DNA of 64,000 nucleotides. Origin: an uncultured Oscillospiraceae bacterium (GTDB taxonomy: Bacteria > Bacillota > Clostridia > UMGS1883). A model generated the notes under the pieces. That model worked only from the letters and a program-made list of their open reading frames with translations. It was not told where the DNA came from and ran no database searches. This document shows, one piece after another, positions 6,090 to 59,982 of the stretch. The translations under genes and the position numbers were made by a program. How positions within the stretch are numbered: the first letter of the stretch is position 1; each line of letters begins with the position of its first letter. The DNA is taken from NCBI GenBank assembly GCA_964385605.1, contig CAYLPQ010000003.1, positions 8,203 to 72,202 of the forward strand. The letters are read 5' to 3'.

Positions 6090-6094
6090 TATAT

Positions 6095-13035: not shown

Positions 13036-13060
13036 AATTTAAACCTCCGTTTTTTTAAGT

Positions 13061-13095
13061 TTGAAATGTGAAATTCGAATTTCGCACTTCGCATT
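13061..13095 (-). repeat. tandem heptamer array (5 units)
   Basis: Plus-strand units: TTGAAAT GTGAAAT TCGAATT TCGCACT TCGCATT. Same family as 20884-20918, 20992-21019, 36373-36393 and 43235-43262. Confidence 0.7.
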
Positions 13096-13107
13096 TAATT
13101 TTTGCCT

Positions 13108-13139
13108 TTTTGCGCTCTGGAGCTTTTTAACATCTCCGT
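13108..13139 (-). repeat. stop-adjacent conserved box, copy A
   Basis: Minus-strand reading is TAA-AC-GGAGATGTTAAAAAGCTCCAGAGCGCAAAA, directly after the rlmB stop. 28/29 identical to 50183-50211. Confidence 0.8.
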
Positions 13140-13871
13140 TTATCTTCCTTGTCTTACTGCTTCATATATAAAAAGCGATGCCGCAATCGACGCATTAAGG
13201 GAATTTACATTGCCCCTCATTGGGATTTTAACCTTGAAATCGCATTTTTCCAGAACAAGACGGCTTATACCCTCACCCTCAGAGCCGATAACGATTGCCA
13301 CTGCACCCTTGAGGTCAGCATCAAACAATTCCTTGTCTCCCGATGCGTCTGCGCCCGTTACCCAGATGTTTTTCTTCTTTAAGTCATCAATTGTTTTTGC
13401 AAGGCTGGCAACTCTTGCCACGGGGGTATACTCCACTGCGCCTGCAGATGCCTTGGCACAGGTTGCCGTAAGGGACGCGGAATCGTGCTTCGATATTATA
13501 ATACCGTGAACTCCTGCGCAGTTTGCCGTTCTGATGATAGAGCCCAGATTACGGGGGTCGGCAATTTTGTCAAGGATTATGATGAAAGGGGGCTCTCCCT
13601 TTTCCTCTGCTATGCGGAGTATATCGTCAACAGTTTTATACTCTGCCGCCGCACAAACCGCAATAACACCCTGATGCGCCCCTGTCTCACTCATTTCGTC
13701 AAGCTTACGGGGGTCGGCTTCGCTTATTTGTATGCCCTTTTCCTTTGCCATACGGATTATGGGAATAATGCTTCCGTGCTTATCGCCCTTTTTTACATAA
13801 ATCTTGTCTATATTTCTCCCGCTTTTAAGGGCTTCTGTAACGGGATTTCTGCCCTCTATTTTATCTGTCAT
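13140..13871 (-). CDS. rlmB: 23S rRNA (guanosine-2'-O-)-methyltransferase RlmB (SpoU/TrmH family)
   Basis: SpoU_sub_bind N-terminus plus SpoU motifs (LDKIADPRNLGSIIRTA, AIVIGSEGEGIS, SLNASIAASL). Confidence 0.9.
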   Translation of the reverse strand: MTDKIEGRNPVTEALKSGRNIDKIYVKKGDKHGSIIPIIRMAKEKGIQISEADPRKLDEMSETGAHQGVIAVCAAAEYKTVDDILRIAEEKGEPPFIIILDKIADPRNLGSIIRTANCAGVHGIIISKHDSASLTATCAKASAGAVEYTPVARVASLAKTIDDLKKKNIWVTGADASGDKELFDADLKGAVAIVIGSEGEGISRLVLEKCDFKVKIPMRGNVNSLNASIAASLFIYEAVRQGR

Positions 13872-16068: not shown

Positions 16069-16088
16069 AATATCTCCCCAAACAGAAA

Positions 16089-16113
16089 GGGATGTAAAAA
16101 GTTTTTACATCCC
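16089..16113 (-). terminator. rho-independent terminator after lysC
   Basis: gggatgtaaaaa / tttttacatccc stem, with a T-rich tract on the minus strand. The stem core is shared with the terminator at 57404-57445. Confidence 0.75.
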
Positions 16114-16162
16114 CTTTTTACCGTATAAGATTCTGCGCAAAATTAATCAGTGTGCAACCTGA

Positions 16163-18610: not shown

Positions 18611-18760
18611 AATAGAAATATTTTCGTCAGAAACTTTTCATTTTGGTGGGGATAGGAAAAATCTGCGAACGGACAAACAATTTATACAATGTAGGGCAGG
18701 GGCTCTTATGCCGAAAAGCGGAACGAGCAAGCCCGTTCCCTACAAACGCATTGCCTGTTC

Positions 18761-18781
18761 CGGGCAATTTTAACATCCGTC
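18761..18781 (-). repeat. stop-adjacent conserved box, copy D
   Basis: Minus-strand reading is TAA-GACGGATGTTAAAATTGCCCGG, directly after the ACT-gene stop. The 17 nt GATGTTAAAATTGCCCG are identical to copy B (21028-21047). Confidence 0.75.
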
Positions 18782-19216
18782 TTACTGTTTTGCAAGTATA
18801 TTTACCCGTCTTACACCACGGACTGTCTGTATTCCTGAAATAAGTCTGTCGGTGCTGACCTTCATATTCTCTGTCTGAACGGTTACGGTTATATTTGCAA
18901 CTCCGTTTACCGGAACGTTCTGATTAATTGTGAGAATGTTGCAGCCTACGTCGCTTATAAAGCTTAACATATCGCTGAGCACACCCTTCATATCCACAAC
19001 CGCTATAAGGAGTGTCAGTATTCCCTGCATCTGATTAAAAGGGAAAACATAATCCTTATATTTATAATACGCACTTCTTGAAACATCTGCTATCGCAGTA
19101 GCTTCATTAACTGTTTCTGCCTGACCTGATTCCAGTAATTCCTTAACGGTCAGAACCTTGTGGTAAACCGGCGGAAGCACTGACAGGTCGGCGATTACAA
19201 GTTTCCTTTCTACCAT
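18782..19216 (-). CDS. ACT-domain protein (UPF0735/PheB-like)
   Basis: The C-terminal ACT fold is recognisable (ILTLLIAVVDMKGVLSDMLSFISDVGCNILTINQ). Start set at ATG 19216 after a GGTGG Shine-Dalgarno; the track ORF starts at 19237. Confidence 0.75.
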   Translation of the reverse strand: MVERKLVIADLSVLPPVYHKVLTVKELLESGQAETVNEATAIADVSRSAYYKYKDYVFPFNQMQGILTLLIAVVDMKGVLSDMLSFISDVGCNILTINQNVPVNGVANITVTVQTENMKVSTDRLISGIQTVRGVRRVNILAKQ

Positions 19217-20883: not shown

Positions 20884-21047
20884 AGTTCGAAATGTAAAAT
20901 GCGAAGTGCGTAATGAATGTTGATTTTCGTTAAAACGAAAACCTTTGTTTTAATAAAAAGATTTTCTCCACAGAGAAAATCAACCATCATTTCGAATTTC
21001 GAACTTCGAATTTCGCATTAAAATCTTCGGGCAATTTTAACATCTCC
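20884..21047 (-). repeat. composite palindromic repeat: two inverted heptamer arrays, internal hairpins, and conserved box copy B
   Basis: 20884-20918 reads AGTTCGA AATGTAA AATGCGA AGTGCGT AATGAAT. 20992-21019 reads TCGAATT TCGAACT TCGAATT TCGCATT. Internal hairpins at 20924-20941 and 20961-20982. Box cgggcaattttaacatctcc at 21028-21047. Confidence 0.75.
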
Positions 21048-21088: not shown

Positions 21089-21104
21089 CTTTTTATGTTT
21101 GCTA

Positions 21105-21278
21105 TTATTCAGCAGGGTTGGGAGCTGCTACGGGGCAGATACCAGCACAAGCGCCACACTCTACGCAAGCATCAGCATCGATTTCGTACTTACCATCTGC
21201 TTCTTTAATGCATTCTACGGGGCATTCAGCTGCACAAGCGCCGCAACCGATGCACTCATCGTTGATAACGTATGCCAT
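21105..21278 (-). CDS. 2x[4Fe-4S] ferredoxin
   Basis: Two CxxCxxCxxxCP motifs (CIGCGACAAECP, CVECGACAGICP). Start taken at MAYVIND; the track ORF extends to 21299. Confidence 0.92.
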   Translation of the reverse strand: MAYVINDECIGCGACAAECPVECIKEADGKYEIDADACVECGACAGICPVAAPNPAE

Positions 21279-21437
21279 TGTCGTACACCTCTTTTTCATA
21301 AATTATACCTACATTGTAGCATATTTTTCTCAAATTTCAATAGTTTTTTTCGTATTTATAGTTTTTTTGGCTTGAATATGGGGTGTTTTTTATATATAAT
21401 GGTTAAAAATATAATTTTTTGTTAGGAGTAATGTGCC

Positions 21438-25582: not shown

Positions 25583-26383
25583 ATGAAAATCGGATTTATC
25601 GGTTGCGGCAATATGGGCAGTGCCCTTTGCAGCAGTGCTATAAAAGCAGTGGGAAACAAAGATATTTACGTTTCTGACTTTATTACAGAAAAGGCAAAGG
25701 AATTTTGCGATGCTACAGGTGCAACACTTTCTTCAAACGAGGAAATTTCAAAGAACTGTGACTATATTTTCCTTGGAGTAAAACCCCAGATAATGGACAA
25801 GACAATTGACGAAATCAATCATATTCTCAAGGAAAGAACAGACGATTTCACCATCGTTTCAATGGCGGCAGGATTAAGCATCGGCGCTATTGAAAAAATG
25901 ATTGGTGCATCCGTTCCCGTTATACGCATTATGCCCAATACCCCCTGTAAGGTTTCGGAGGGTGTCGTTCTCTACGCGCCTAACGACAAGGTCAGCGCCC
26001 TCAAGGCGGAGGCATTTGAAAAAATTCTTTCAAAATGCGGATCCGTTGACCGCATCCCCGAAAATCTTATTGATGCGGCAAGCGCAGTATCAGGTTGCGG
26101 ACCTGCGTTTGTGTATCTGTTTATCGAAGCACTGGCTGACGGCGGTGTATGTTGCGGTCTGCCCAGAGAAAAAGCACTCGCTTATGCGGCGCAGACCGTA
26201 AAGGGTGCGGCTGAAATGGTGCTTGAAACAGGCATGCACCCCGGTGAGCTGAAAGATGCAGTATGCTCACCGGGCGGCACAACTATTGAGGGTGTGAAAG
26301 CTCTTGAAGACGGTGCTTTCCGTGCAAATGCTATGGAGGCAGTAGTGGCTGCATATGAAAAAACTCTCAAATTAAAAGCCTGA
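25583..26383 (+). CDS. proC: pyrroline-5-carboxylate reductase
   Basis: IGFIGCGNMGSAL NAD motif and C-terminal SPGGTTIEG motif. Confidence 0.95.
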   Translation: MKIGFIGCGNMGSALCSSAIKAVGNKDIYVSDFITEKAKEFCDATGATLSSNEEISKNCDYIFLGVKPQIMDKTIDEINHILKERTDDFTIVSMAAGLSIGAIEKMIGASVPVIRIMPNTPCKVSEGVVLYAPNDKVSALKAEAFEKILSKCGSVDRIPENLIDAASAVSGCGPAFVYLFIEALADGGVCCGLPREKALAYAAQTVKGAAEMVLETGMHPGELKDAVCSPGGTTIEGVKALEDGAFRANAMEAVVAAYEKTLKLKA

Positions 26384-26451
26384 AAGCTTGATTAAATGGC
26401 GCAGAACGCATAAAGGAACTATATATACGACTTACTATCGTTTTGTGTAAC

Positions 26452-26484
26452 AAAAAAAGAACCGCCGCAGTGGTTCTTTTTTTA
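26452..26484. terminator. bidirectional terminator (proC / ABC binding-protein gene)
   Basis: A-run, agaaccgc / gtggttct stem, T-run. Confidence 0.7.
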
Positions 26485-26495
26485 TGTAGTTTTAA

Positions 26496-27281
26496 TTACT
26501 CAGCAACTGCGTACTTATCTGCAAGGTCTGCAATTGTGCCTTCTGCAAGCATCTTCCCGATAGAAGCATTGATCATATCAAGAAGCTCGGGGTTGCCCTT
26601 CTTAACTGCAATAGCATATTCTTCTGATGCGAAAGCTTCAGAATCTTCAACAATCTTAAGACCTTCGTTGTCATTTACATACTTTGTAGCTGTTGCAGAG
26701 TCGATAACTACAACATCAGCCTTGCCGTTTACAAGCTCAAGAACTGCGTCTGTACCCTTCTTGAAAGAAGTGTAGCTGTATCCCATGTCAACAACACAAG
26801 TTTCGCCTGTGTAACCCTGGATAACAGCGATTTTCTTGTCAGCCATATCGCTTGCCTTTGCAATTTCGGACTCTTCCTTAACAATCATAACCTGTGTTGC
26901 CTGATAGTAAGGAATTGAGAAATCAACCTTCTGCTGTCTTTCTTCTGTTACTGTCATACCTGCGATAACAGCATCTACCTGACCGTTGTCAAGAGCAATA
27001 AGAAGAGAGTCAAACTCCATGTTTGAAATCTTTGCTGTCTTGCCGTTGTCTGTAGCAATCTTATCAGCGATTGCCATGTCGATACCGTCAAATTCGCCGA
27101 TAACACCCTTTGCTGTTACAAACTCAAAGGGAGGAAATTCCGCATTTGTACCAAATACGATTTCTTCAACCTTGTTGTCTGCTACTTCTTCTTCGTTTCC
27201 GCCACAAGCTGTGAATGCAACCATAGCCATTACAAGTGACAGGATAAGTGCCAGAATTCTGATTTGTTTTTTCATGTTCAT
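26496..27281 (-). CDS. amino-acid ABC transporter substrate-binding lipoprotein
   Basis: Lipobox VAFTACGG and an SBP_bac_3-like sequence. Confidence 0.88.
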   Translation of the reverse strand: MNMKKQIRILALILSLVMAMVAFTACGGNEEEVADNKVEEIVFGTNAEFPPFEFVTAKGVIGEFDGIDMAIADKIATDNGKTAKISNMEFDSLLIALDNGQVDAVIAGMTVTEERQQKVDFSIPYYQATQVMIVKEESEIAKASDMADKKIAVIQGYTGETCVVDMGYSYTSFKKGTDAVLELVNGKADVVVIDSATATKYVNDNEGLKIVEDSEAFASEEYAIAVKKGNPELLDMINASIGKMLAEGTIADLADKYAVAE

Positions 27282-30070: not shown

Positions 30071-30178
30071 GAAAACAAAATTGAAGCATGCCGCTTCAGC
30101 CACGTCGCGTTCCAATTAAATTTAAAACCAACAAATTGTTGCTCGCAATGAAAGTATACGATTTTCTATACAAACAAA

Positions 30179-30217
30179 ATTCCCCAATTTGGGGACAGTC
30201 CCCAAATTGAGGAATTT
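30179..30217. repeat. 19-bp-stem hairpin of the TTTGGGGACAGTCCCCAAA family
   Basis: aattccccaatttggggac a gtccccaaattgaggaatt. Its 17-nt core is identical to the one at 541-557. Confidence 0.8.
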
Positions 30218-30230
30218 TCATTTTGTATTC

Positions 30231-30250
30231 AGGAGCTTTTTAACATTTCC
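30231..30250 (-). repeat. stop-adjacent conserved box, copy E
   Basis: Minus-strand reading is TAG-GGAAATGTTAAAAAGCTCCTGA, directly after the ypeB stop. Confidence 0.7.
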
Positions 30251-31576
30251 CTACACTGCAAGTGTTCCGTTTTCCGACTCAAGCAGTATCTGCACATCCT
30301 CGGTATATCCCGTCTGGGTGTTCACATACATAAGGAAATGCTTTCCTGAAACGGTTCCTTTTATCTGATAGCAACAGGCTTCACTTCCGTTTTCAAGGGG
30401 GATTATCGCCATAGACACCCCATTTATTTCAAGGTTGCCGTTGATATTTCGGAGCGCCTGCTCTTTTGAGATTTTCGGCTGGGGAATAGTGCGGTAGGTG
30501 TGATTCATTACATATCCACGGCTTTCAAAGCCTATCACTTCGCCGTTATCAAGAGCTATTTTTATTTTTACAAGGTCCGGGTAAACAATGTAGCCATCCT
30601 GACTGTAGGCATAATTTATAACAATGCTTCCCTCCCGCTTTTCAAAATAGCTTTCCTGCATATTTCTGTAGCCGTTGTCACGCAGAAATAACTCCGCTTT
30701 CTGCCTAACCTCTTTTTCGGAAAGTTTTTCTTCTCCAATGTGTTTGTCCCGTAAAAGCATCAGCAGAAAACCGCCGTTTTTCGTAAATTCCGCCGTTGTG
30801 TTGTTTCCGTTTATTATATAGGATGGAAGTTTTCCGTCTATTTTTGTGACAGTCACGTCCTTGTCACCTGTAAATTTAACGGCACGGTCTTTTGCCTGTT
30901 TTTCGGTTATTTCGGACTGTTCCTTTAAAAGAGGGGATTCTTTAAGTTCAAGATGCTGTGAAAACGGTCCGTCATAAATCAGCGACGGATAGTTGTGAAA
31001 TTCCTCCTCCAGCAGGGCAAGACGGCTTGACATAGCGGTTTTTCCGCTTCCGTCAAAGGAGGGAAAGCCGGATTTATTTCCGTCGTAGTTTATTTTGCCT
31101 TCGTTGACGTCAACGAGCATTTTATCAAGCCCTGTCCGCAGTTTCCCTGCATATCCACCAAGGTCCTGCATAGTCTGTATTTCCTCTGCAGAAAGCGCCT
31201 CGCCCCGCAGCATTTTGTCAGACAGACAGATTGCATATTCTCCCACCTGGGACAGAAATTCCGAGGTTTTTTCAAGCTGTTTCCCCTCCAGCGGAAGAAG
31301 TGTAAGATTTGCCTTGGCGGCACTTGCCTGACCGTACAAATCAGAGCTGAGCCTCACCATCTGGTCGGGAGTTGACACGATCTGCCCCTTTAACAAAGTA
31401 ATTTCCATGTCGTCTACATACTGTGTAAGTTCAGAAAAAATTCTGTTGTATTCGTTCACGCGGATATATTCAAGGGATCGTGCCCTGGTATACTGCGAAA
31501 ACCCAAACATTACAAGCAAAAGTATAACCGTTGCCAGTAAAATGCCTTTTTTATGTTTTTTGAGAGCTTCTAGCAT
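30251..31576 (-). CDS. ypeB: germination protein YpeB (PepSY domains)
   Basis: N-terminal membrane anchor. Length (441 aa) and C-terminal PepSY repeats are typical of YpeB. Confidence 0.85.
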   Translation of the reverse strand: MLEALKKHKKGILLATVILLLVMFGFSQYTRARSLEYIRVNEYNRIFSELTQYVDDMEITLLKGQIVSTPDQMVRLSSDLYGQASAAKANLTLLPLEGKQLEKTSEFLSQVGEYAICLSDKMLRGEALSAEEIQTMQDLGGYAGKLRTGLDKMLVDVNEGKINYDGNKSGFPSFDGSGKTAMSSRLALLEEEFHNYPSLIYDGPFSQHLELKESPLLKEQSEITEKQAKDRAVKFTGDKDVTVTKIDGKLPSYIINGNNTTAEFTKNGGFLLMLLRDKHIGEEKLSEKEVRQKAELFLRDNGYRNMQESYFEKREGSIVINYAYSQDGYIVYPDLVKIKIALDNGEVIGFESRGYVMNHTYRTIPQPKISKEQALRNINGNLEINGVSMAIIPLENGSEACCYQIKGTVSGKHFLMYVNTQTGYTEDVQILLESENGTLAV

Positions 31577-35480: not shown

Positions 35481-36248
35481 ATGTCACATAACAGTTATGT
35501 AGACTCTTCGGAAATTTTTTATATATATGACGGCAGTTTTGAGGGGCTTCTCTCTGTTATTTTCACTGCTGTTTATTCACGGGTGCGCCCTTGCGGCATT
35601 TCTACCGACAGGACTCTGCAGTTTGCTTTTGCCACACGTTATGTGGAGGTAGAAACCAACCGCAACCATGCCCGCCGTGTTCACGATGCGATCTATAAGA
35701 AAATCGGAACTTTCGGTCTTAAACGGCTTTACTATGTTTTTCTCAGTGACCATCCCACCAAAGACCTTATTATATATAATTATATGATGTTAGGGTTTAA
35801 AAACGGACAGCTCACTAATTCTGCACTGTCAGACAATACCGTTTCCGCCGCATTTAAAATTGCAGAAAGTGTTTCACGTGAAACAGAGAAATTTCGTCAG
35901 TTTACAAGGTTCAACGTAATGCAATGGGGTGTTCAATACGCAAAAATTGCACCAATCAATAATATTCTGCCTATTCTCACCCCGTTTTTTGTGAACAGGC
36001 TCAAAATAATTCCTTTTGTTATACACGATGTAACTCACGATGTCTGCGCTATATATGATACAAAGGAATGGCGGATAGTATCATCTGACGGTTTAACTGC
36101 GCCGGAGCTTTCCGAGGACGAGGCAAAAGTCAAAACATTATGGGAAACTTTTTTCAATGCAATTACCATTGAACCCAGAAAAAACACCAAGCTTCAGAAG
36201 CAGAATATGCCGGCGAGGTACTTTAGAAATGTCTGGAGCATTAAATAA
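35481..36248 (+). CDS. TIGR03915-like 'probable DNA metabolism protein', partner of the radical SAM protein
   Basis: 255 aa. Family-typical N-terminus YIYDGSFEGLLSVIFTA and C-terminal NMPARYFRN. No fused uracil-DNA-glycosylase domain. Confidence 0.75.
   Translation: MSHNSYVDSSEIFYIYDGSFEGLLSVIFTAVYSRVRPCGISTDRTLQFAFATRYVEVETNRNHARRVHDAIYKKIGTFGLKRLYYVFLSDHPTKDLIIYNYMMLGFKNGQLTNSALSDNTVSAAFKIAESVSRETEKFRQFTRFNVMQWGVQYAKIAPINNILPILTPFFVNRLKIIPFVIHDVTHDVCAIYDTKEWRIVSSDGLTAPELSEDEAKVKTLWETFFNAITIEPRKNTKLQKQNMPARYFRNVWSIK
35870..35885. promoter_or_regulatory. parS site (inside a coding region)
   Basis: TGTTTCACGTGAAACA, a perfect match to the consensus TGTTNCACGTGAAACA. Confidence 0.85.
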
Positions 36249-36249
36249 T

Positions 36250-36270
36250 GGGTTGTTAAAATCGCCCAGA
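36250..36270 (+). repeat. stop-adjacent conserved box, copy F
   Basis: TAA-T-GGGTTGTTAAAATCGCCCAGA, directly after the stop at 36246-36248. Confidence 0.6.
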
Positions 36271-36337
36271 CCGTAAAGAGCTTATAGGATTAAATTTTCA
36301 AATCAATAAACCATACCGAAAAGAAATAAATTAAAAA

Positions 36338-36362
36338 GGGATTCATCTCCACAATGAACCCC
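36338..36362 (-). terminator. rho-independent terminator of serS
   Basis: Minus strand: GGGGTTCAT TGTGGAG ATGAATCCC TTTTT. Preceded by the heptamer-like block GAAATTCGAAATGAAGG. Confidence 0.8.
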
Positions 36363-36438
36363 TTCCTTCATTTCGAATTTCTAATTTAATTTTTCATTAT
36401 ACATTCAGAACTTTTATTACAATAATCAAACAAACCGC

Positions 36439-37767: not shown

Positions 37768-38610
37768 TCAATCAAGTAAGTCAACAATTCTTGTAAGGTC
37801 TTTAACGGAATAGAACTCAATCTCTATTTTACCTTTACGGTTTCCTTTTATTCTGACCTTTGTCCCATATTTTTCGCTGAGAGTGCGTTCCACATCAGGA
37901 TAAACACTTTCTTTCTCTGTTTTTTTCTTTTTTTTCGGCGGTGTGTCCTCTTTAGCGAGAGCTTCTACAGCTCTTACTGTAAGCCCCTCATCAGCAATTT
38001 TCTTTGCTGCATCAATACGGGATGCGCCCTCCGGCAGAGACAACAGCGCTCTTGCGTGTCCCATAGAAAGCTTGTTTTCGGCAAGCATTGTCTTTATCTC
38101 ATCTTCCAGCGAAAGAAGACGGAGCATATTTGCCACATTACTGCGGCTTTTACCCACTCTTTCACTGACCTTATCCTGTGTCATAGAGAACTTGTCCATC
38201 AGAGTTTTATATCCAAGCGCCTCTTCAATAGGATTAAGGTCTTCACGTTGAAGATTTTCTATAAGAGCAACTTCCGCAATCTGTAACTCGTCATAATTTC
38301 TGACAATCGCGGGAATTTCTGAAAGATTGGCAATTTTCGCCGCTCTCCATCGACGTTCACCTGCAATTATACTGTAGTAACCGTTGTTTCCCTCGGTTAC
38401 GATTATTGGCTGAATAATGCCGTGTTCCGATATGGAATTTGCCAGTGCCTGCAGTTGTTCCCGGTCAAAATTCTTTCTGGGCTGGTCACGGCGCGGCTCA
38501 ACAAGGCTGGTTTTTAGCATTACAACATCGCCCTGCTCCGTTTTCTCCTCTGCGCCATGTTCTGTGCTTTCAAACAAAGCATCAAGCCCCTGTCCCAAAA
38601 CTCTTTTCAT
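37768..38610 (-). CDS. parB: chromosome partitioning protein ParB/Spo0J
   Basis: ParB box IIAGERRWRAA and an HTH (SQDKVSERVGKSRSNVANMLRLL). Overlaps parA by 4 nt. Confidence 0.95.
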   Translation of the reverse strand: MKRVLGQGLDALFESTEHGAEEKTEQGDVVMLKTSLVEPRRDQPRKNFDREQLQALANSISEHGIIQPIIVTEGNNGYYSIIAGERRWRAAKIANLSEIPAIVRNYDELQIAEVALIENLQREDLNPIEEALGYKTLMDKFSMTQDKVSERVGKSRSNVANMLRLLSLEDEIKTMLAENKLSMGHARALLSLPEGASRIDAAKKIADEGLTVRAVEALAKEDTPPKKKKKTEKESVYPDVERTLSEKYGTKVRIKGNRKGKIEIEFYSVKDLTRIVDLLD

Positions 38611-39401
38611 TCTACACCATCCTCCCCGTTATTTCCCGGCGGATTGCTTTCAGCAACCTCCGCGGCAAGCTCTGTATAAGCCTGCGCCCCTTTGGAAGAT
38701 TCATCATAATATACAACAGGTCTGCCGAATCCCGGCGCCTCACTGATTCTCACATTCCGCGGAATAATCGTGCGGTAAACTTTTCCCGGGAAAAACCGCT
38801 TAACCTCATCAACAACCTCAACCGCAAGATTTGTGCGGGCATCGTACATAGTCATCACAATACCCTCAATAAAAAGCGAAGGATTAAGCGCTTTTTTTAT
38901 TCTTTTTACCGTTTCAACCAGCTGACTTACACCCTCAAGAGCATAAAATTCGCACTGTATAGGTATCAGAACACTGTTTGCCGCAGTGAGTGTGTTTATC
39001 GTTATAAGTCCCAGTGACGGCGGAGTGTCTATAAGGATAAAATCGTATTCTTCCTTAACCCCTTCAAGACTCTGCTTCAATCTGTTTTCTCTGCCCATAA
39101 CACTGATTAACTCAACCTCTGCCCCTGATAATTCAAGGTTCGATGGACAAACAAAAAGATTTTCATATTGGGAGGGAATTGCCACGTTTTCCATTTTTTC
39201 TTCATTTATAAGACAGTCGTAGATAGTTTTTTCGACTCTTCTTTTATCTATTCCAAGTCCGCTTGTGGAATTTCCCTGAGGGTCTATATCAACAAGCAAA
39301 ACCTTTTTACCCATTTTTGCAAGACAAGCGGCAAGATTAACCGTTGTTGTGGTTTTTCCCACACCGCCTTTCTGGTTTGCGACAGCTATTATTCTGCTCA
39401 T
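38607..39401 (-). CDS. parA: chromosome partitioning ATPase ParA/Soj
   Basis: Deviant Walker A NQKGGVGKTTT. ATG 39401 lies after GGAGGG; the track ORF starts at 39443. Confidence 0.95.
   Translation of the reverse strand: MSRIIAVANQKGGVGKTTTTVNLAACLAKMGKKVLLVDIDPQGNSTSGLGIDKRRVEKTIYDCLINEEKMENVAIPSQYENLFVCPSNLELSGAEVELISVMGRENRLKQSLEGVKEEYDFILIDTPPSLGLITINTLTAANSVLIPIQCEFYALEGVSQLVETVKRIKKALNPSLFIEGIVMTMYDARTNLAVEVVDEVKRFFPGKVYRTIIPRNVRISEAPGFGRPVVYYDESSKGAQAYTELAAEVAESNPPGNNGEDGVE
38781..38794. promoter_or_regulatory. Noc-binding-site-like palindrome
   Basis: TTTTCCCGGGAAAA against the B. subtilis NBS consensus ATTTCCCGGGAAAT (12/14, perfect palindrome). Lies inside parA. Confidence 0.5.
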
Positions 39402-39446
39402 TTTTACCCTCCTTTTTCGTTGTTTTAATATAGTATAACACAAAAA

Positions 39447-39462
39447 TGTTTCACGTGAAACA
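39447..39462. promoter_or_regulatory. parS site (parA-noc intergenic)
   Basis: TGTTTCACGTGAAACA, a perfect consensus palindrome. Confidence 0.9.
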
Positions 39463-39569
39463 TTTTTTTATAAAAAATTTGTTTTTTTACAAAAATACAG
39501 CTATATCAGAGCTTTTACGATGTTAATTACATATAAAAGGCCGCATTTTTACAAAAAGCGGCCTTAACT

Positions 39570-40367
39570 TTATTTATATGCCTTAATAACAAACTCCGTA
39601 TATTCTTCATTCTCATTCTGCGAATATTCCACCCGTGCGCCATTACTTTTCAACAGTTCTATCGTTTTTTTGACAGTATTTATGTAGATAGGATCTCTCT
39701 TCAAAGCTTTTTCTTTGTTAATTTCAGATATGCGCCTTTTTTTCGGTTTTTGAGACATATTTATAAGATTTGAAGAAACGAGTTTTCTTATATCTTCGGG
39801 AGAAAGACGTTCCTCCTTTGCTTTTTTTATTATATCAAGCTGTTTTTCCTCATTATGAAGTCGTAGAAGCTCTTTTATGGCTGATTCTTCAATTTCTGCA
39901 TTTTCTATTTCTTTTCTTACACTTTCTCTTAAAGAAAGTATTCTGACCCTGTCATTAAGTATAAAAGGGCTTACAGACAGGCTTTTCTGCAATTTATCTT
40001 TTTTTATGCGGTGAAACATCATCAGATTATAAAACCCCTCCGCTTCCTCGAAAATCCCCAGATTTCTGCGGTGCAGGTTTTCTATCAGCGACAACTGGGC
40101 GCATTGAGCATCACCCGCACGCACAATTATTGCGGGAATTCGCTCCACAGATGCAAGAATTGCCGCTCTGACGCGTCTTTGACCACAAATCAGCTCATAT
40201 CCAAAGTTGCTTCTTCGTACAATTACCGGGCAGAGCATTCCCACCTCTTTTATTGATTCTGCAAGGCTTTCAATATCAGTCTGACAAAATTTTCTGCGTA
40301 TCTGGTAAGGGTTTGGGATTATTTCCTTGGGAGAAATCATTTTTATCTTTTGGGTGGTACTAATCAC
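39570..40367 (-). CDS. noc: ParB/Noc-family paralogue (nucleoid-occlusion-like)
   Basis: ParB N-terminal domain (IIPNPYQIRRKF, ICGQRRVRAA). Sits between parA and rsmG, as noc does in Bacilli. Start codon uncertain (GTG 40367 or ATG 40340). Confidence 0.75.
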   Translation of the reverse strand: MISTTQKIKMISPKEIIPNPYQIRRKFCQTDIESLAESIKEVGMLCPVIVRRSNFGYELICGQRRVRAAILASVERIPAIIVRAGDAQCAQLSLIENLHRRNLGIFEEAEGFYNLMMFHRIKKDKLQKSLSVSPFILNDRVRILSLRESVRKEIENAEIEESAIKELLRLHNEEKQLDIIKKAKEERLSPEDIRKLVSSNLINMSQKPKKRRISEINKEKALKRDPIYINTVKKTIELLKSNGARVEYSQNENEEYTEFVIKAYK

Positions 40368-40535: not shown

Positions 40536-40567
40536 TACGGTCTGCGCTTTTTATCAAGCCGTCCGTA
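40536..40567 (-). repeat. stop-adjacent box, degenerate copy H
   Basis: Minus-strand reading is TAA-TACGGACGGCTTGATAAAAAGCGCAGACCGTA, directly after the rsmG stop. Closed by TACGG/CCGTA. Confidence 0.45.
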
Positions 40568-41272
40568 TTAAACAATAGGCTCTTTCGATGGTTTTCCGGC
40601 TTTTCGTGGGTATTTTGATGGGGTTTGAGAGATTTTTCTTACAATTACAAGACAATGCTTTATTTCCGATGGTAAAACAACCTCTTTTACTTCCTCAATC
40701 TGTCCGCCCATTTCCTTTATAGCTTTTTTCGCATTGTTTATTTCTTCTTCCGGGTCATTTCCTTTCATAGCTACGAAATATCCGCCTACCTTTACAAAAG
40801 GAAGAGCATATTCTGAAAGAACTGCAAGGTCAGCAACGGCTCTTGCGGTAGCTACATCAAATTTTTCACGTAATTCCTTGTTTTTTCCGCCTTCTTCCGC
40901 TCTGAAATGCAATGCTTTTGCGTTTTTAAGACCTACTTTTTCAATTACATCATTTAAAAAGTTAATTCTTTTATTGAGAGAATCAAGCATTGTAAGGTTT
41001 ATGTCCTCTCTCACGACTTTTACGGGAACAGACGGAAAGCCTGCTCCTGCACCTATGTCTATAAGAGAGCAACCCTCTGTGAGTTTTCCGCTTGAAATAA
41101 GGGTTATTGAATCAAGAAAATGCTTTTCCTGAACCTCTTCATGGTCAGTTATAGCTGTAAGATTCATAAATTCGTTGTATTCAAGCATCATTTTCTCATA
41201 TTTTGAGAGATTTTCTTCCTGTAACGGTGTTATTTCAATATTAAATTTTGCAGCTTCTTTTATTAAATCCAT
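40568..41272 (-). CDS. rsmG: 16S rRNA (guanine527-N7)-methyltransferase RsmG
   Basis: GidB family with SAM motif LIDIGAGAGFPSVPVK. Confidence 0.95.
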   Translation of the reverse strand: MDLIKEAAKFNIEITPLQEENLSKYEKMMLEYNEFMNLTAITDHEEVQEKHFLDSITLISSGKLTEGCSLIDIGAGAGFPSVPVKVVREDINLTMLDSLNKRINFLNDVIEKVGLKNAKALHFRAEEGGKNKELREKFDVATARAVADLAVLSEYALPFVKVGGYFVAMKGNDPEEEINNAKKAIKEMGGQIEEVKEVVLPSEIKHCLVIVRKISQTPSKYPRKAGKPSKEPIV

Positions 41273-43140: not shown

Positions 43141-43176
43141 AATAAAAATCCTTTCACAAAGGTTTTTTAAGTTCTA

Positions 43177-43262
43177 AATTATAAATTCGAAGTGATGATA
43201 GGTTTTCTTTTTTAAAGAAATCTTTTCCTTCATTTTGAATTTCGCACTTTACATTTCGCATT
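43177..43262 (-). repeat. inverted heptamer arrays filling the mnmE-mnmG spacer
   Basis: 43177-43197 reads AATTATA AATTCGA AGTGATG. 43235-43262 reads TTGAATT TCGCACT TTACATT TCGCATT. The right array abuts the mnmE stop codon. Confidence 0.7.
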
Positions 43263-44593: not shown

Positions 44594-44736
44594 ATTTTCA
44601 CTTCCAATATTAAAAAATAAGAGGTAAAAGTATTTTCTCATAAGATATTATCTTACAAGAAAGACCTTTCACCTCTTTCTCACTTTATTAAAGTTATTTC
44701 CGAGCTCTTTTTGAGGCGCTCAAAAATGGTGTGGAA

Positions 44737-44805
44737 CTTACGAACTGAACCGAAGGGTTACCCGAAAGTGTACGTGGGTACACCGAGAGGTGAAGTTCGT
44801 GAGTA
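44737..44805 (-). repeat. structured ~70-nt element, copy 2 (homologue of 50238-50309)
   Basis: Minus-strand reading is ACTCACGAACT-[47 nt]-AGTTCGTAAGT. 11-bp closing stem, with interior about 70% identical to copy 1. Confidence 0.7.
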
Positions 44806-44942
44806 GAATTTGGATAAAATTTAAAATTCGTGTAACGAATTTTTTCTATAAACAATAAAACTCACTTTGTTTTATTGTTTTATAAAATCAAATAATCTAA
44901 TTTACTGTTTCCAAATGCGATCAATGCCGTTTTTCAGCCGAC

Positions 44943-45635
44943 TCAAACTCCCTCGAGTTCGTTTTCTTTACGATTATATCTGTACTTTGAAACATAATCG
45001 TCTCCATATTCCTTTTTCTTTGTTGTTATAACGATACAACGGTTAGGATCCTTACCTGTAGAATATGTTGTAATATTTCTGTACTCCTGAAGTGCTGAAT
45101 GAATAATTCTTCTTTCGTTAGGATTCATAGGCTCAAGAGTAACACTCTTTCTGCTTCTTGAAACAACTCCTGCCATTCTTTTTGCAAGCTTTATAAGAGT
45201 TTCTTCTCTCTTACCTCTGTAATTTTCAGTGTCGATTGTAACTCTTATATAATCTTCCTCATCCTTATTTACAACAAGTGATGTAAGATACTGAAGTGCA
45301 TCAAGTGTATCGCCGCGTCTGCCTATTACCTTACCCACAGCTTCGCTGTCACCAACGATTTCAATATTTACAGTTTCATCCTCATACGAAGACTTTATTT
45401 CTGTTTCAATACCGAAATTATCCATTACACTTTTAACGTATTTTTCGGCTTTCTGAAGGGGATTTTCCTCCATCTTAACTCTTACCACTGCATTTTCTGC
45501 ACCGAGACCGAGGATTCCTCTTTTACCTTCATTTACTACTTCTATTTCTACATTCTCTCTGTCAGTATTAAGCTCAAGAAGTGCTGCATTAACGGCTTCA
45601 TCAATTGTTTTACCGCTTTTTTCTATAATAATCAT
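44943..45635 (-). CDS. jag: RNA-binding protein Jag/KhpB (Jag_N, KH, R3H)
   Basis: 230 aa. N-terminal Jag domain and C-terminal R3H (ERRIIHSAL). Confidence 0.9.
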   Translation of the reverse strand: MIIIEKSGKTIDEAVNAALLELNTDRENVEIEVVNEGKRGILGLGAENAVVRVKMEENPLQKAEKYVKSVMDNFGIETEIKSSYEDETVNIEIVGDSEAVGKVIGRRGDTLDALQYLTSLVVNKDEEDYIRVTIDTENYRGKREETLIKLAKRMAGVVSRSRKSVTLEPMNPNERRIIHSALQEYRNITTYSTGKDPNRCIVITTKKKEYGDDYVSKYRYNRKENELEGV

Positions 45636-49080: not shown

Positions 49081-50181
49081 ATGAAATTTTTCTGCGATAC
49101 AAAAAATCTTTCGGAAGCTATTAATATTGTTTCCAAGGCTGTTGCCGTTAAATCACCCATTCCTCATCTTGAGGGAATTCTTCTTACAGCACAGGGCGGT
49201 ACTGTAACATTACTTGGTAACAATCTTGAAATTTCAATTAAAACAACTATAAGTGCAAATATTCAGGAAGAGGGAAGTATTGTTCTTAATTCAAAGATGT
49301 TTTCAGACATTGTAAGAAAGCTCCCCCAGGATGTTTGTGAAATAACAACTAATGAAAAAAATAATGTTTCTATTGTTTGTCAGAATTCAGATTATAAAAT
49401 TGTAGGTCTTAATGCTGATGAATTTCCCCAGCCTCCCCAGATTGCAAAGAAAAGCACTATTGTTTTAAAGAGTGAAAAACTCCGTGAAATAATAGGAAAA
49501 ACGTTGTTTGCTGTTTCTATGGATAATGCAAGAAAAATCCTTACAGGCTCCCTTTATGAAATTGAGAACAATAATCTTACAGTTGTTGCAGTTGACGGAT
49601 ACCGCCTTGCCCTTACAAAGATGGAGCTTGAAGGAGACCATGCAGATGCTAAATTTATTATTCCCGGTAAAACGCAGAGCGAAATTTCAAAAATTATAAG
49701 CGGAAGTGAAGATTCCGATATAGTTATTTCCTTTAGCGATAACTATGCTCTTATAGAGGGTGAGGGAATTATTATTACATCACGTCTTATAGAGGGTGAG
49801 TTCTTCTCTTACAGAAATACAATTCCTTCAGAATCAAAATATATTATTAAAACAGACTGTTATTCTTTCGGTAAAGCTATTGAAAGAGTTGAGCCTATTA
49901 TTGATGAAGTAAGTAAAAACTGCGTAAGATTTAAATTTGGTAACGGAAAAATAAACATAAGCTGTGAAACAGTTCTCGGTAAAGTAAATGACATTGTTGA
50001 ATGTGAATATTTCGGTGAAGATATAGAGATAGGATTTAACTATAAATACCTTCATGATGCTGTTTCTAGATGTGACAGCGATGAAATTGAGCTTAAGATG
50101 AATTCTCCATTCAATCCTCTTATTATAAATTCTCCGGAGGATGACAGTTATCTGTATATGGTATTACCTGTAAGAATATGA
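49081..50181 (+). CDS. dnaN: DNA polymerase III beta sliding clamp
   Basis: 366 aa, three-domain beta clamp. Canonical position after dnaA. Confidence 0.97.
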   Translation: MKFFCDTKNLSEAINIVSKAVAVKSPIPHLEGILLTAQGGTVTLLGNNLEISIKTTISANIQEEGSIVLNSKMFSDIVRKLPQDVCEITTNEKNNVSIVCQNSDYKIVGLNADEFPQPPQIAKKSTIVLKSEKLREIIGKTLFAVSMDNARKILTGSLYEIENNNLTVVAVDGYRLALTKMELEGDHADAKFIIPGKTQSEISKIISGSEDSDIVISFSDNYALIEGEGIIITSRLIEGEFFSYRNTIPSESKYIIKTDCYSFGKAIERVEPIIDEVSKNCVRFKFGNGKINISCETVLGKVNDIVECEYFGEDIEIGFNYKYLHDAVSRCDSDEIELKMNSPFNPLIINSPEDDSYLYMVLPVRI

Positions 50182-50182
50182 C

Positions 50183-50211
50183 GAGATGTTAAAAAGCTCC
50201 AGATCGCAAAA
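50183..50211 (+). repeat. stop-adjacent conserved box, copy C
   Basis: TGA-C-GAGATGTTAAAAAGCTCCAGATCGCAAAA. 28/29 identical to the reverse complement of 13108-13136. Confidence 0.8.
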
Positions 50212-50236
50212 CGAATTTCGGATTGATTCGTTTTGC
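50206..50236 (+). repeat. hairpin GCAAAACGAAT...ATTCGTTTTGC
   Basis: 11-bp stem. The arm sequences plus the following TAC are shared with the 56-nt palindrome at 8996-9051. A related hairpin lies at 59653-59676. Confidence 0.65.
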
Positions 50237-50237
50237 T

Positions 50238-50309
50238 ACGCACAAACGTCACCTCGACGTACCCACCACGTATGCCTTCGGTTCCGCCCTTCGGGATTCG
50301 TTTGTACGT
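50238..50309 (+). repeat. structured ~70-nt element, copy 1
   Basis: ACGCACAAACG-[50 nt containing TCACCTC, TACCCAC and CCCTTCGGG]-CGTTTGTACGT. Its 11-bp stem covaries with copy 2 at 44737-44805. Confidence 0.7.
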
Positions 50310-50375
50310 TCTGAAACTTTTTTCCTGTCTCTTTGGAAGTTTTAAAAATATAATTTTTAAAAAATAGGTGTAGTT

Positions 50376-57403: not shown

Positions 57404-57445
57404 CAAAAAAAGGATGTAAAAAAACTGATTTTTTACATCCTTTTT
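57404..57445. terminator. bidirectional terminator
   Basis: aaaaaaaggatgtaaaaaa ... ttttttacatccttttt. Lies between convergent genes. Confidence 0.85.
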
Positions 57446-58413: not shown

Positions 58414-58526
58414 CCTTTCGTTACTAAAACACTAACTATACAATTATATCACAAATATTTTTGTAAATCTACAAAAAAATAAACAAAAAATGTAATTAAA
58501 CAGATATTTGTAAAAGAGGTGAGAAA

Positions 58527-58911
58527 ATGAGACGTTATAATATTACTTATGTAAAAGAAACTGTCACAGAGGAGATATGGAATAAGATAATGCCTCTAAA
58601 AATAGATATTTCCCCCTGCGAGGAGTATCCCTGTCCATATAAAACACAGGTGCGGCTTGCATATGACGAAGAAAAGCTGTATGTTTATTTCAAAACGGAC
58701 GAAACAAAGCTTCGTGCAGTGAACTCACAAAGAAATTCCCTTTTCCTTTATAAAAGAGCATTTTAACGATATATCAAAGATAATGCATGCCAATTTTTAT
58801 AAATGCGGAGAAAAAACAGAACCTGAACACTATGGATGCTGGAGTAATATTCCTGAATATCCGTATGATTTTCATACTCCTGAATACTTCGGTGAACTGG
58901 CTTTTAATTAA
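58527..58911 (+). pseudogene. carbohydrate-binding family 9-like protein, internally deleted and frameshifted
   Basis: N-terminal fragment (..VRLAYDEEKLYVYFKTDETKLRAVNSQRNS) stops at 58766. The C-terminal end (HANFYKCGEKTEPEHYGCWSNIPEYPYDFHTPEYFGELAFN*) continues in another frame to 58911. Confidence 0.65.
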
Positions 58912-58991
58912 ACGAAGAAGGGTGAGGACTAACCTAATAATAACAGGAAGAATCAGAAATCTTTCTGTAAAATTCAATTAACGGAAATTCT

Positions 58992-59334
58992 TTAAGGCAA
59001 ATTTAAAAAATCGTCATTAAGTGACCACAAAAGGTATCCGTCAATCCTGGCTCCGTCATCACTTGCCTTTTCAAGCTTATGCAGATAACGTTCAAGAAAG
59101 TCAATTCTGTTGGGGTCATGCCCTTTTCCGTCAAGAGATACAACATCGTGGGCAGACATTCCGTTTTCAGTTATAAAAATCGGAAGTTTAAGTCCGGGGA
59201 ACATGTATGCCCAGTTGATAACTCTGACCGATAAAGCATTGCGGCTCGTTGAAGGTTATAAAATATTTTGCCTTATCTGAATAAAGCTCTGCTATTGCTG
59301 CAGTAAGTGCAGTTGATTCAGCATTGTTCTCCAT
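58992..59334 (-). pseudogene. GH1 beta-glucosidase remnant
   Basis: The acid/base motif segment KYFITFNEPQCFIGQSYQLGIHVP (about 59205-59334) is joined out of frame directly to the nucleophile segment PIFITENGMS (ORF 58992-59204). About 190 aa are missing between them, and both protein ends are absent. Confidence 0.75.
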
Positions 59335-59518
59335 ATGAACGCAAACAGTCTGATTTTTCTTGACGTATAAATTTTTATAAGAAACCCTCCCAATAGTATT
59401 ATTTTTATAATATCACAGCCGGGAGAGTAGTTAAATTTCAACTTTATTGGATTTTATTTAACTGTTTTTGGGAAAGGTGTCAGAAAGAACTCTTTTTCAG
59501 AAGAAATCAAAACATAAG

Positions 59519-59556
59519 AAAAAAACCGCCTAACCCTATTGGTTAAGCGGTTTTTT
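59519..59556. terminator. strong bidirectional terminator
   Basis: A-run, aaccgcctaacc / ggttaagcggtt stem, T-run. Confidence 0.85.
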
Positions 59557-59558
59557 AT

Positions 59559-59577
59559 AGCGTGCTTGGAGGGACGA
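59559..59577 (-). repeat. duplicated tRNA-Arg 3' end (T-stem 3' strand plus acceptor strand)
   Basis: tatagcgtgcttggaggga against tatggcgtgcttggaggga at 59761-59779: 18/19 identical, with CCA changed to CTA. Confidence 0.8.
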
Positions 59578-59724
59578 TGTTGCTGCGCACCATCCCTGCT
59601 AGTCCACCCAAATGCTGACGCATTTGGGTACCGGACGTCGCACCACCGTGCTAAAAACGATTATCAATCGTTTTTTAACGCACGTTGCCCTCACAGGGTT
59701 CGAATCCCTTTTTAATTAAAGCAC

Positions 59725-59758
59725 AAAAAAGGACATCCACGAATGTAGATGTCTTTTC
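59725..59758 (-). terminator. terminator immediately after tRNA-Arg
   Basis: Minus strand: AAAAGACATC TACATTCGTG GATGTCCTTTTTT. Confidence 0.7.
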
Positions 59759-59762
59759 TTTA

Positions 59763-59839
59763 TGGCGTGCTTGGAGGGATTCGAACCCCCGACCCTTTGG
59801 TTCGTAGCCAAATACTCTATCCAACTGAGCTACAAGCAC
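59763..59839 (-). tRNA. tRNA-Arg (anticodon ACG), CCA encoded
   Basis: Minus-strand cloverleaf: GTGCTTG TA GCTC AGTTGGATA GAGT A TTTGG CTACGAA CCAAA GGGTC GGGGG TTCGAAT CCCTC CAAGCAC G CCA. Confidence 0.93.
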
Positions 59840-59930
59840 ACTTCAAACGCAAGTTATATGATAACATACAATTGATAAAAAAGCAAGTATTATTTTTGGA
59901 AAATTTCGTTTTTTTAAATTTTTAAAAAAA

Positions 59931-59981
59931 GGATGTGTCTCAACACAACAAGCTTTGTAATTTGAGGACACATCCTTTTTT
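59931..59981 (-). terminator. terminator after the membrane AraC-type regulator gene
   Basis: ggatgtgtc / gacacatcc stem with a 27-nt loop, flanked by an A-run and a T-run. Confidence 0.65.
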
Positions 59982-59982
59982 G

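Follow-up and report, generated by a model that had tools for sequence, protein, structure and literature searches.

We analysed a 64,000-nt stretch of DNA (hereafter the window; positions 8,203 to 72,202 of contig CAYLPQ010000003.1) from an uncultured Oscillospiraceae bacterium, in which a short conserved box recurs directly after the stop codons of genes, including dnaN. The analyses indicated that the box forms, on the side of the gene, one arm of the helix (P0) that closes a non-coding, highly folded, interspersed element of 150–260 nt, of which there are many copies per genome. We consider it likely, at a probability of about 0.75, that the box is the terminal arm of a non-autonomous, structured selfish repeat of uncultured gut and rumen Clostridia, similar to REPINs (hairpin-forming doublets of repetitive extragenic palindromic, or REP, sequences) and to miniature inverted-repeat transposable elements (MITEs), and inserted in a polar manner next to stop codons. 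The second of the roles suggested in an initial annotation of this DNA, namely the conserved end of a mosaic repeat of the BOX/ERIC type targeting gene ends, was right: the box starts the 150–260-nt element, more than 230 related loci were found, and the element is often joined to other repeat modules. The window covers the region of the replication origin, oriC (rnpA, dnaA, dnaN, yaaA, recF, gyrB, gyrA), and its DnaN is 84–92% identical to proteins of ruminant and human gut metagenome-assembled genomes (MAGs) labelled Clostridia or Oscillospiraceae.

All of the box sequences quoted in the initial annotation were present where it had placed them. The best pair, 50183–50211 and 13108–13136, is complementary at 28 of 29 nt, GATGTTAAAATTGCCCG is common to the 21047(-) and 18781(-) boxes, and the boxes at 30250(-) and 36250(+) read GGGAAATGTTAAAAAGCTCC and TGGGTTGTTAAAATCGCCCAGA, respectively. 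The pattern RATGTTAAAANNNCC, with at most one mismatch, had 10 matches in the window where 1.6 were expected, and none of 100 shuffles reached 10. Adjacency to a stop codon, which had been claimed for seven boxes, held for six, located 0–7 nt past the stops of dnaN (50181) and of the genes for a SpoU methylase (13140), an ACT protein (18782), YpeB (30251), a DUF4130 protein (36248) and RsmG (40568). Pfam identification of the open reading frames (ORFs) indicated that these six host genes are unrelated to one another and have housekeeping roles. The seventh box (21028–21047) is preceded by a TAG, but its true upstream gene is a 64-aa ferredoxin-like ORF (21105–21299, -) which ends about 57 nt away, with a hairpin between. 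The copy at 40536–40567, described as degenerate, is a genuine variant box (GGCTTGATAAAAAGCGCAGACCG), a variant that heads a complete element in a relative (locus L042). Two copies had been overlooked, a variant box after proC (26384–26416, +) and a full copy with a diverged box after jag (44712–44942).

The dnaN–yaaA spacer is 12–16 nt in most relatives and 194 nt in the window, where it starts with the box, so that the box had to be part of something inserted in the window. A scan with the reverse complement of the box (TTGCGNTCTGGRNNNTTTTAACAT) returned at least 118 stretches, and all the matches listed were from gut or rumen Clostridia MAGs. As this sample was ascertained by the box, a second scan was performed with a pattern from the core of the element (GCTAYRAACAAACYTCRCCNCTCG); it returned at least 120 stretches, and the matches listed added MAGs of Acutalibacteraceae and Congzhengia. 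Together, more than 230 loci in Clostridia MAGs (Oscillospiraceae, Acutalibacteraceae and Congzhengia) carry the element. The scans covered one genome per species, and the copy counts given for relatives are among the loci collected. The exact 21-mer of the box heads a tandemly repeated unit of about 235 nt in loci L001 and L002, of which the dnaN copy in the window is a version with a short loop, and a larger unit was also seen in L004.

In the sense of the host gene, the order is the stop codon, 0–10 nt, the box, a stem (P1) with a variable loop, a three-way core (P2, P3 and P4) and a far arm. The box consists of a G-run, (A/C)TGT(T), an A-run, NNN, YCC, AGA, N and C, and its canonical form is GGGG-ATGTTAAAA-NNN-YCC-AGA-N-C. 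The commonest box of the wider family is GGGG(A/C)TGTAAAAAAAG(T/C)(C/G)CAGACC, the ATGTTAAAA form of the window being a minority (6 of 71 core-ascertained copies). P1 is preceded by RTAGC, whose R (A or G) takes part in the pairing of P2, and is formed by a 5' strand (GCAAAAAGGC) and a 3' strand (GCCTTTTTGC) around an A/T-rich loop of 10–130 nt, often with its own hairpin. Past P1 are TAYG, P2 (AACAAAC), YTCRCCTCTCG, the P3 hairpin, CTTCGGGTAACCC, the P4 hairpin and P2' (GTTTGTYC), the pairing core of P2 being ACAAAC/GTTTGT. The far arm reads ATTCTGAA-NNN-TTTTTTCC-TAT-CCCC, and can also be written GTTCTGAA-NNN-TTTTTTCC-TAT-CCCC or TTCTGAA-NNN-TTTTTTCCTATCCCC. The core was found downstream of 116 of the 158 boxes identified with nhmmer, and a box-type arm upstream of at least 64 of the 71 core-ascertained copies.

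The far end of the element is an imperfect reverse complement of the box, and the two arms covary. At the termini we observed the combinations GGGGAT/ATCCCC, GGGAAT/ATTCCC, GGAAAT/ATTTCC, GAGGAT/ATCCTC and AGAGAT/ATCTCT, and the variable triplet of the box changes together with the triplet that precedes the T run of the far arm (AAAAATG/CATTTTT, AAAATTG/CAATTTT, AAAAACG/CGTTTTT, AAAATAT/ATATTTT). The apparently variable positions of the box thus vary because the box pairs with the far arm in P0. An alignment of 45 full copies (A2) gave a consensus of 52 pairs in seven helices, in which 96.9% of the cells were paired, compared to 85.7% with shuffled partners (0 of 500 reached the observed value) and 37–50% with slid partners. 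Double, compensatory changes were present at 30 of the 52 pairs, which showed that the fold is maintained by such changes. These pairings did not bear out the proposal in the initial annotation of a hairpin with a conserved loop, as the G-run and variable triplet pair with the far end of the element 130–240 nt away and not with the adjacent YCC. A local hairpin of the GGAG...CTCC type around a ATGTTAAAA loop was ruled out for the same reason, those bases being paired with the far arm.

The covariation also bears on whether the box is coding. A conserved micro-ORF, either MLK(S/L)(S/P) in sense or a C-terminal ...L-R-S-G-x-F-stop in antisense, has next to no probability in our assessment, even with LRSG-x-F-TAA present on the antisense strand of most canonical boxes, with all four CGN codons and a three-periodic variation (CGN, TCN, GGR). 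Each nucleotide of the "x codon" covaries with its partner in the distant far arm, the wider family has no TTA/TAA at that position, and the antisense frames are 5–141 codons long with unrelated upstream (N-terminal) parts. The sense ATG frames diverge after five codons, and their ATG is adjoined by the G-run with no spacer. The box is non-coding, as had been suggested, and a micro-ORF, small protein or type I toxin gene was refuted by the triplet covariation with the far arm and by there being no related peptide across copies.

About two-thirds of the copies adjoin the stop codon of a long ORF on the same strand, against about 3% for random intergenic sites. Boxes are enriched directly after same-strand stop codons: outside the window, 86 of 137 are at most 12 nt past a same-strand ORF of at least 100 codons, compared to 2.9% for random intergenic positions and strands. 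Among full elements with a left neighbour, 62 of 68 have a same-strand ORF (at least 100 codons) ending beside the box, and the right neighbour is co-directional in 33 cases and convergent in 25. In the core-ascertained set, an ORF of at least 80 codons ends 8–45 nt before P1, which corresponds to 0 to about 15 nt before the box, in 47 of 71 copies. The box does occur on both sides of oriC, as first noted. Host genes were on the locally dominant strand in a ratio of 54:25, the same as that of background genes at these loci (326:157), which indicated that orientation follows the gene and not the direction of replication. A replication-linked orientation, as in IS200/IS605 insertion sequences, was not supported by this local-majority-strand test.

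Comparison of orthologous sites identified seven filled and empty pairs in addition to dnaN, including gyrB, whose site is filled in L069 and empty in the window. In six pairs the empty partner had a plain terminator or a directly coupled downstream gene. There was no target-site duplication in 40 of 70 copies, and the others shared 1–4 nt (7 nt in one), which is the level expected by chance.

Folding also favoured one strand. In 68 of 70 copies the better fold is that of the strand antisense to the host gene, with a mean minimum free energy of -80.3 versus -70.5 kcal/mol, and in 59 of 62 copies of the independent, core-ascertained set. The alignment-fold energy of a trimmed 50-copy alignment was -56 in antisense and -28 in sense. 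By our own count, the covarying pairs of A2, read on the antisense strand, contain about 141 G·U and about 20 A·C cells. Examples of antisense G·U pairs that become A·C in sense are a pair of P2 (23 of 45 copies), a pair of P3 (13 of 45) and P0 (19 of 45), and 48 of 68 core-ascertained copies have a sense-strand A·C mismatch in P2. The dnaN copy itself folds at -57.1 (antisense) versus -42.8 kcal/mol (sense) as RNA, and at -31.9 versus -24.2 with DNA folding parameters. Together, these data showed that tolerance of wobble pairs is nearly confined to the antisense strand. Selection on the structure thus acts on that strand, which argues against a function of the sense-strand RNA for the host mRNA.

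Such a function is the central feature of one other explanation, in which the element is a host-beneficial module of the 3' untranslated region (3'-UTR), serving the sense transcript as terminator, 3'-exonuclease block or processing site, with proximity to the stop codon functionally required. REP sequences, in arrays known as bacterial interspersed mosaic elements (BIMEs), and ERIC act as such modules in enterobacteria. The position and sense orientation relative to the upstream gene are consistent with this explanation, as is the conservation of some solo boxes between orthologs of 81–83% identity, such as rlmB in the window and L093. In addition, the loop of P1 in long copies contains a terminator-like hairpin and T run more commonly in sense (22 of 61) than in antisense (8 of 61). 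However, the covarying pairs optimised on the antisense strand become A·C mismatches on the sense strand, and a stop of transcription in the P1 loop would preclude P0, P1 and P2 in the sense RNA. The host genes are unrelated, and their orthologs are commonly without the element, having instead the plain terminator or coupled gene seen at the empty sites. We regard the 3'-UTR module as unlikely. It is plausible that the P1-loop hairpin was exapted as a terminator by host genes, which leaves the antisense-strand fold unexplained. The box itself is not a terminator, in agreement with the initial annotation, as P0 is followed by A-rich or mixed sequence on either strand. An insertion between the stop codon and a pre-existing terminator was only partly supported, a terminator being present in the 78-nt flank of 9–10 of 70 elements by strict criteria.

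A family of antisense small-RNA genes, whose folded RNA would act on the 3' end of a convergent host mRNA or in trans, would account for the G·U pairs and the better folding of the antisense strand. That strand also has a Shine-Dalgarno-like GAGAGGYGAAG beside a TTG buried in P2, which recalls the sequestered starts of type I toxin mRNAs. Against this, conservation ends exactly at the closing helix, so that no promoter travels with the element, and in some copies the antisense 5' side adjoins a hairpin and T run that would stop incoming transcription. The frames that follow the TTG, translated partly by hand, are hydrophilic, only 7–19 codons long and altered by the covariation of P1, and the high copy number and the gain and loss fit a selfish element better. 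We consider this reading slightly less likely again than the 3'-UTR module.

The manner in which copies are damaged, joined and truncated is of interest for the selfish repeat that we favour. Among the 158 boxes, 32 were solo despite there being room for a core, while at most 7 of 71 core-ascertained copies were without a box, and cores that had earlier appeared "box-less" had variant boxes. These counts showed that damaged copies tend to keep the box end. A second box-like sequence is located within 35 nt past 36 of 70 full elements (random, 2.6%), and is either the start of another copy or an arm of a simple hairpin, GGnTGT(T)AAAAA...TTTTT(A)ACAnCC. Where another copy starts, the arrays run head-to-tail with linkers of 1–10 nt and finish with a member truncated at the far end (L001, L002, L034, L108, L118, L123). 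A second structured repeat, a TTCGAA-rich module, is frequently attached to solo boxes.

The search for known relatives of the element gave negative results. With Rfam 15, in both gathering and E-value modes, only tRNA was over threshold in the window and in L001 and L002, and the sole match over the dnaN element at E of at most 10 was a chance microRNA of 9.6 bits. A search of the literature turned up papers on REPINs and no description of the element. No conserved ORF was found in the element among the copies, no recurrent protein family beside the copies in the loci examined and, among these loci, no inverted pair of boxes enclosing a long ORF, as might be expected of an autonomous partner. 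A phage origin was rejected, as only three viral contigs matched.

Among known systems, the element appears to work most like REPINs, yet it fails their defining features. REPINs are high-copy extragenic hairpins of about 70–110 nt with compensatory changes, composed of symmetric doublets of 20–35-nt REP sequences with a GT[AG]G head, mobilised in trans, leaving singlets as remnants, and reported to be random in extragenic space (PMC3116915). Like REP sequences and REPINs, the element is high-copy, non-autonomous and extragenic, has no internal protein, forms tandem or higher-order arrays and leaves singlets as remnants, and its long imperfect hairpin, predicted to fold in single-stranded DNA or mRNA, is kept by compensatory changes. 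Unlike them, it is 150–260 nt long, asymmetric and branched, with five helices and dissimilar arms (ATGTT versus CCTAT), it sits 0–10 nt past stop codons in a single orientation, and one of its strands is clearly preferred. Group 1 RAYTs (REP-associated tyrosine transposases) occur in Clostridia (PMC5581495), but no RAYT was found near any copy by a crude tblastn search of the flanks.

The element also resembles the MITE-like families of other bacteria (Correia/nemis in Neisseria, ERIC/IRU in enterobacteria, BOX/RUP in pneumococcus), which are likewise 100–250-bp non-coding intergenic repeats with terminal inverted complementarity and mosaic copies, often co-transcribed with their neighbours and variably present between relatives. 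In classical MITEs, the terminal inverted repeats are of the transposase type, their tips are conserved and the target duplication is fixed (TA for Correia and ERIC), whereas the tips of the element vary and covary and no target duplication was found. To our knowledge, insertion of the known families is possible in both orientations and has no link to the stop codon. Mycobacterial interspersed repetitive units (MIRUs) are 40–100-bp tandem units with small ORFs that overlap the stop and start codons of their neighbours, and without a conserved branched fold. The element shares with them a location in gene junctions, the orientation of the flanking genes and ends that touch stop and start codons; in contrast, it has no ORF, and convergent genes flank a third or more of its copies. 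Class C group II introns, which are inserted next to intrinsic terminators and of which 5'-truncated fragments keeping the 3' end are common, are comparable as structured mobile RNA elements positioned by the architecture of gene ends. The element differs in having no GUGYG/AY ends, no domain V/VI, no intron-encoded protein and no Rfam group II match, and in lying between the stop codon and what follows rather than after a terminator T run on the gene's own strand. It differs from an intrinsic terminator in that P0 has no stem-plus-U-run, only the optional hairpin inside the P1 loop being terminator-like.

Lastly, attC sites of integrons are found directly after ORFs, and their imperfect inverted repeats act as a folded strand complementary to the ORF sense strand. 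The position of the element and its folding on the antisense strand parallel this bottom-strand biology. In addition, ATGTTAAA in the box is an 8-nt match to the XerD arm of dif, TTATGTTAAAT. We nevertheless judge a folded single-strand recombination site of the attC or Xer/dif type to be very improbable. There is no XerC arm or 6–8-bp spacer upstream, where the sequence is the variable end of the host gene, and the likeness to XerD disappears in the wider family, whose motif is mostly TGTAAAAAAA and not TGTTAAA. RYYYAAC/GTTRRRY cores were not present at the expected ends as read from the sequence, nor were R''/L''/L'/R' boxes. The hosts are scattered core housekeeping genes without cassette arrays, no integrase recurs nearby, and the element is branched and 150–260 nt long in contrast to a simple hairpin of 57–141 nt.

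Returning to the selfish repeat, we propose that the element would be multiplied in trans by an enzyme encoded elsewhere, which may recognise a folded single strand of antisense polarity (DNA or RNA), and that the synthesis of new copies would start with the box end, in the short spacer between the stop codon and the next feature. Any benefit to the host, such as termination or protection of 3' ends, would be secondary. Several observations weigh against this interpretation. Host transcription units have the antisense strand as their template. In most cases this strand is probably the leading-strand template too, and usually not that of the lagging strand, which leaves no evident route to its becoming single-stranded; we counted this against a single-stranded DNA intermediate. 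No promoter is conserved with the element, which we counted against an RNA intermediate. No transposase, RAYT or reverse transcriptase was detected in the 1.08 Mb of flanks by a crude screen, consisting of tblastn with IS200 TnpA and E. coli RAYT queries and a scan of all loci for reverse-transcriptase motifs. Solo boxes are only modestly in excess (22% versus at most 10%, in two sets ascertained differently), and many of them are joined to the second repeat family, so that secondary rearrangement could explain these solo boxes. A host function would be consistent with the sense-oriented, terminator-like hairpin that one in three long copies has in its P1 loop. Finally, no insertion was caught between near-identical strains, look-ups of exact proteins for strain-level empty sites having given two short contigs from one sample, and recombinational spread is an alternative.

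A more specific version, in which a polar copy-out element has its folded antisense strand (as RNA, or as cDNA or single-stranded DNA) copied from its 3' end, the box, is rather doubtful. Copying would be primed from a DNA end just past the stop codon, by target-priming or template-jumping as in short interspersed nuclear elements (SINEs). Such a process would jointly explain the fixed box end and variable far end, the head-to-tail arrays ending in a partial copy, the lack of a duplication, the selection on one strand and the gene-following orientation.

The 64-kb window contains nine copies or fragments of the element, about one per 7 kb, and two simple hairpins (Table 1). Two copies are intact, two are divergent or degenerate, three are canonical solo boxes and two are variant solo boxes. 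The covariance model, built on the antisense strand, scored the dnaN element at 141 bits on the - strand and 20.8 bits on the + strand, this copy having belonged to the training set. The copy after jag, from outside the training set, scored 114.5 bits (E 1e-25) on its antisense (+) strand, had an nhmmer core match as well, and folded at -66.7 kcal/mol in antisense versus -55.0 in sense. The model matched the divergent copy after the ACT-domain gene with 20.1 bits (E 0.014) and the degenerate copy after the DUF4130 gene with 18.9 bits (E 0.028); the ortholog of the former in L053 has a canonical full element and that of the latter in L067 has a variant box. The solo-box arrangement after the SpoU/RlmB-type methylase gene is also present in its 81%-identical ortholog in L093. 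The type of variant box found after proC heads full elements in L039, and there was a weak model match at 26388–26560 in the window.

Table 1. Copies, fragments and related hairpins of the element in the window.
Feature	Position	Strand	Context and remarks
Intact element	50183..50331	+	between dnaN stop (50179-50181) and yaaA (50376); coordinates in sense of host gene; - strand folds better
dnaN element, P0 5' arm/box	50183-50203	+	
dnaN element, P1	50206-50216 with 50226-50236	+	
dnaN element, P2	50240-50248 with 50299-50307	+	
dnaN element, TCACCTCG	50249-50256	+	
dnaN element, P3	50257-50271	+	
dnaN element, P0 3' arm	50309-50331	+	
Reported box GAGATGTTAAAAAGCTCCAGATCGCAAAA	50183..50211	+	5' arm of closing helix P0 plus start of P1
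Second intact element	44712..44942	-	after jag/khpB (44943-45635), before mnmE; diverged box GTCGGCTGAAAAACGGCATTGATCGCA 44916-44942; far arm 44715-44738
Divergent short element	18646..18782	-	after ACT-domain gene (stop 18782-18784); box 18757-18781; far arm GTTCGCAGATTTTTCCTATCCCC 18648-18670; core rearranged
Degenerate copy	36247..36405	+	after DUF4130 gene (stop 36246-36248); box TGGGTTGTTAAAATCGCCCAGACCG 36249-36273, then part of TTCGAA module
Solo box with P1 5' strand GGAGATGTTAAAAAGCTCCAGAGCGCAAAAAGGC	13104..13137	-	after SpoU/RlmB-type methylase (stop 13140-13142); no core; TTCGAA-type module next
Solo box	30221..30251	-	after ypeB (stop 30251-30253), then GGGGACTGTCCCC terminator-like hairpin
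Solo box	21025..21047	-	~57 nt past ferredoxin-like ORF (21105-21299) and hairpin; complete TTCGAA-type module (20886-21017) next
Variant solo box GGCTTGATAAAAAGCGCAGACCG	40538..40560	-	7 nt past rsmG stop (40568-40570)
Variant solo box AAGCTTGATTAAATGGCGCAGAACGCATAAAGG	26384..26416	+	directly past proC stop (26381-26383)
Simple palindromic terminator GGGATGTAAAAA-G-TTTTTACATCCC with T run	16086..16116	.	arms match family-wide box consensus GGGGATGTAAAAAAAG
Simple hairpin, box-like arms AGGATGTAAAAAAA-CTGA-TTTTTTACATCCT	57408..57444	.	

Other repeats were also observed. The TTCGAA-type repeat, complete in the window at 20886–21017 (+) and partial at 13055–13098, 36346–36387 and 43141–43261, is built of two long arms rich in TTCGAA/TGCGAA, with G·T pairing on one strand, which enclose two small hairpins (GATTTTCG..CGAAAAC; GATTTTCTC..GAGAAAATC). 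It is located directly after many solo boxes, in either orientation (window, L001, L038, L046, L049, L067, L068, L093, L108). A third type of repeat, at 526–571, 30167–30227 and 6069–6097 in the window, consists of long, terminator-like hairpins centred on GGGGAC(A/T)GTCCCC or CCCCAATTTGGGG and followed by T runs; related hairpins follow dnaN in L017 and L020. A different gene-end module, GGCGGATGGCAACGCCATCC then TTTCGAAGCGAAAAG..., is found directly after dnaN in L007, L010, L016, L021 and L022. Its presence there suggests competition among several repeat families for the site immediately past stop codons. At 8995–9050 in the window, a bidirectional terminator (GAGGCTGTAGCAAAACGAAT...ATTCGTTTTGCTACAGCCTC) reuses the exact P1 stem of the dnaN element (GCAAAACGAAT/ATTCGTTTTGC) and the flanking GTAGC, with a weak model match of 15.6 bits.

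Several further features of the window were recorded. A palindrome, TGTTTCACGTGAAACA, which is the canonical parS sequence, has two perfect copies at 35870–35885 and 39447–39462, one adjoining the ORFs at 38607–40367, taken as parB/parA by position and length, and the other inside the DUF4130 gene. The 108-aa + strand ORF at 21099–21425 is probably spurious; the 64-aa ORF on the opposite strand (21105–21299) is a clostridial-type 2x[4Fe-4S] ferredoxin with CxxCxxCxxxCP twice. Beside the tRNA-Arg gene (59763–59839), the region 59558–59712 has tRNA-like fragments, namely a copy of the tRNA-Arg 3' end (GCGTGCTTGGAGGGA, at 59560) and a T-arm-like sequence in the other orientation (GGGTTCGAATCCC, at 59696). 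Neither ARAGORN nor Rfam called a tRNA gene at 59558–59712, and the surrounding 58414–59982 has no long ORF. The two short contigs from the strain-level look-ups (L142 and L143, Logan assembly, SRR14307658) were the sole public contigs encoding exactly the DnaN and YaaA of the window, and both break inside the dnaN element, L143 stopping 70 nt past the dnaN stop and L142 starting at the P1 3' strand. Short-read assemblies are thus fragmented by the repeat.

The element is a new family among structured, interspersed extragenic repeats, distinguished by its polar placement at stop codons and the selection of its structure on the antisense strand. The combination of placement 0–10 nt past the stop codon, a single orientation, and selection of the fold on a strand that is not the mRNA and mostly not the lagging-strand template is predicted by no described REP/REPIN or MITE mechanism, and such strict placement is unusual among repeats of bacteria. 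These elements are dense in the window and occur in many uncultured Oscillospiraceae, Acutalibacteraceae and related gut and rumen lineages; they break short-read assemblies and create spurious small ORFs. If the enzyme were identified, or an RNA intermediate shown, the origin of gene-end repeats would become directly testable in organisms that are currently without genetics.

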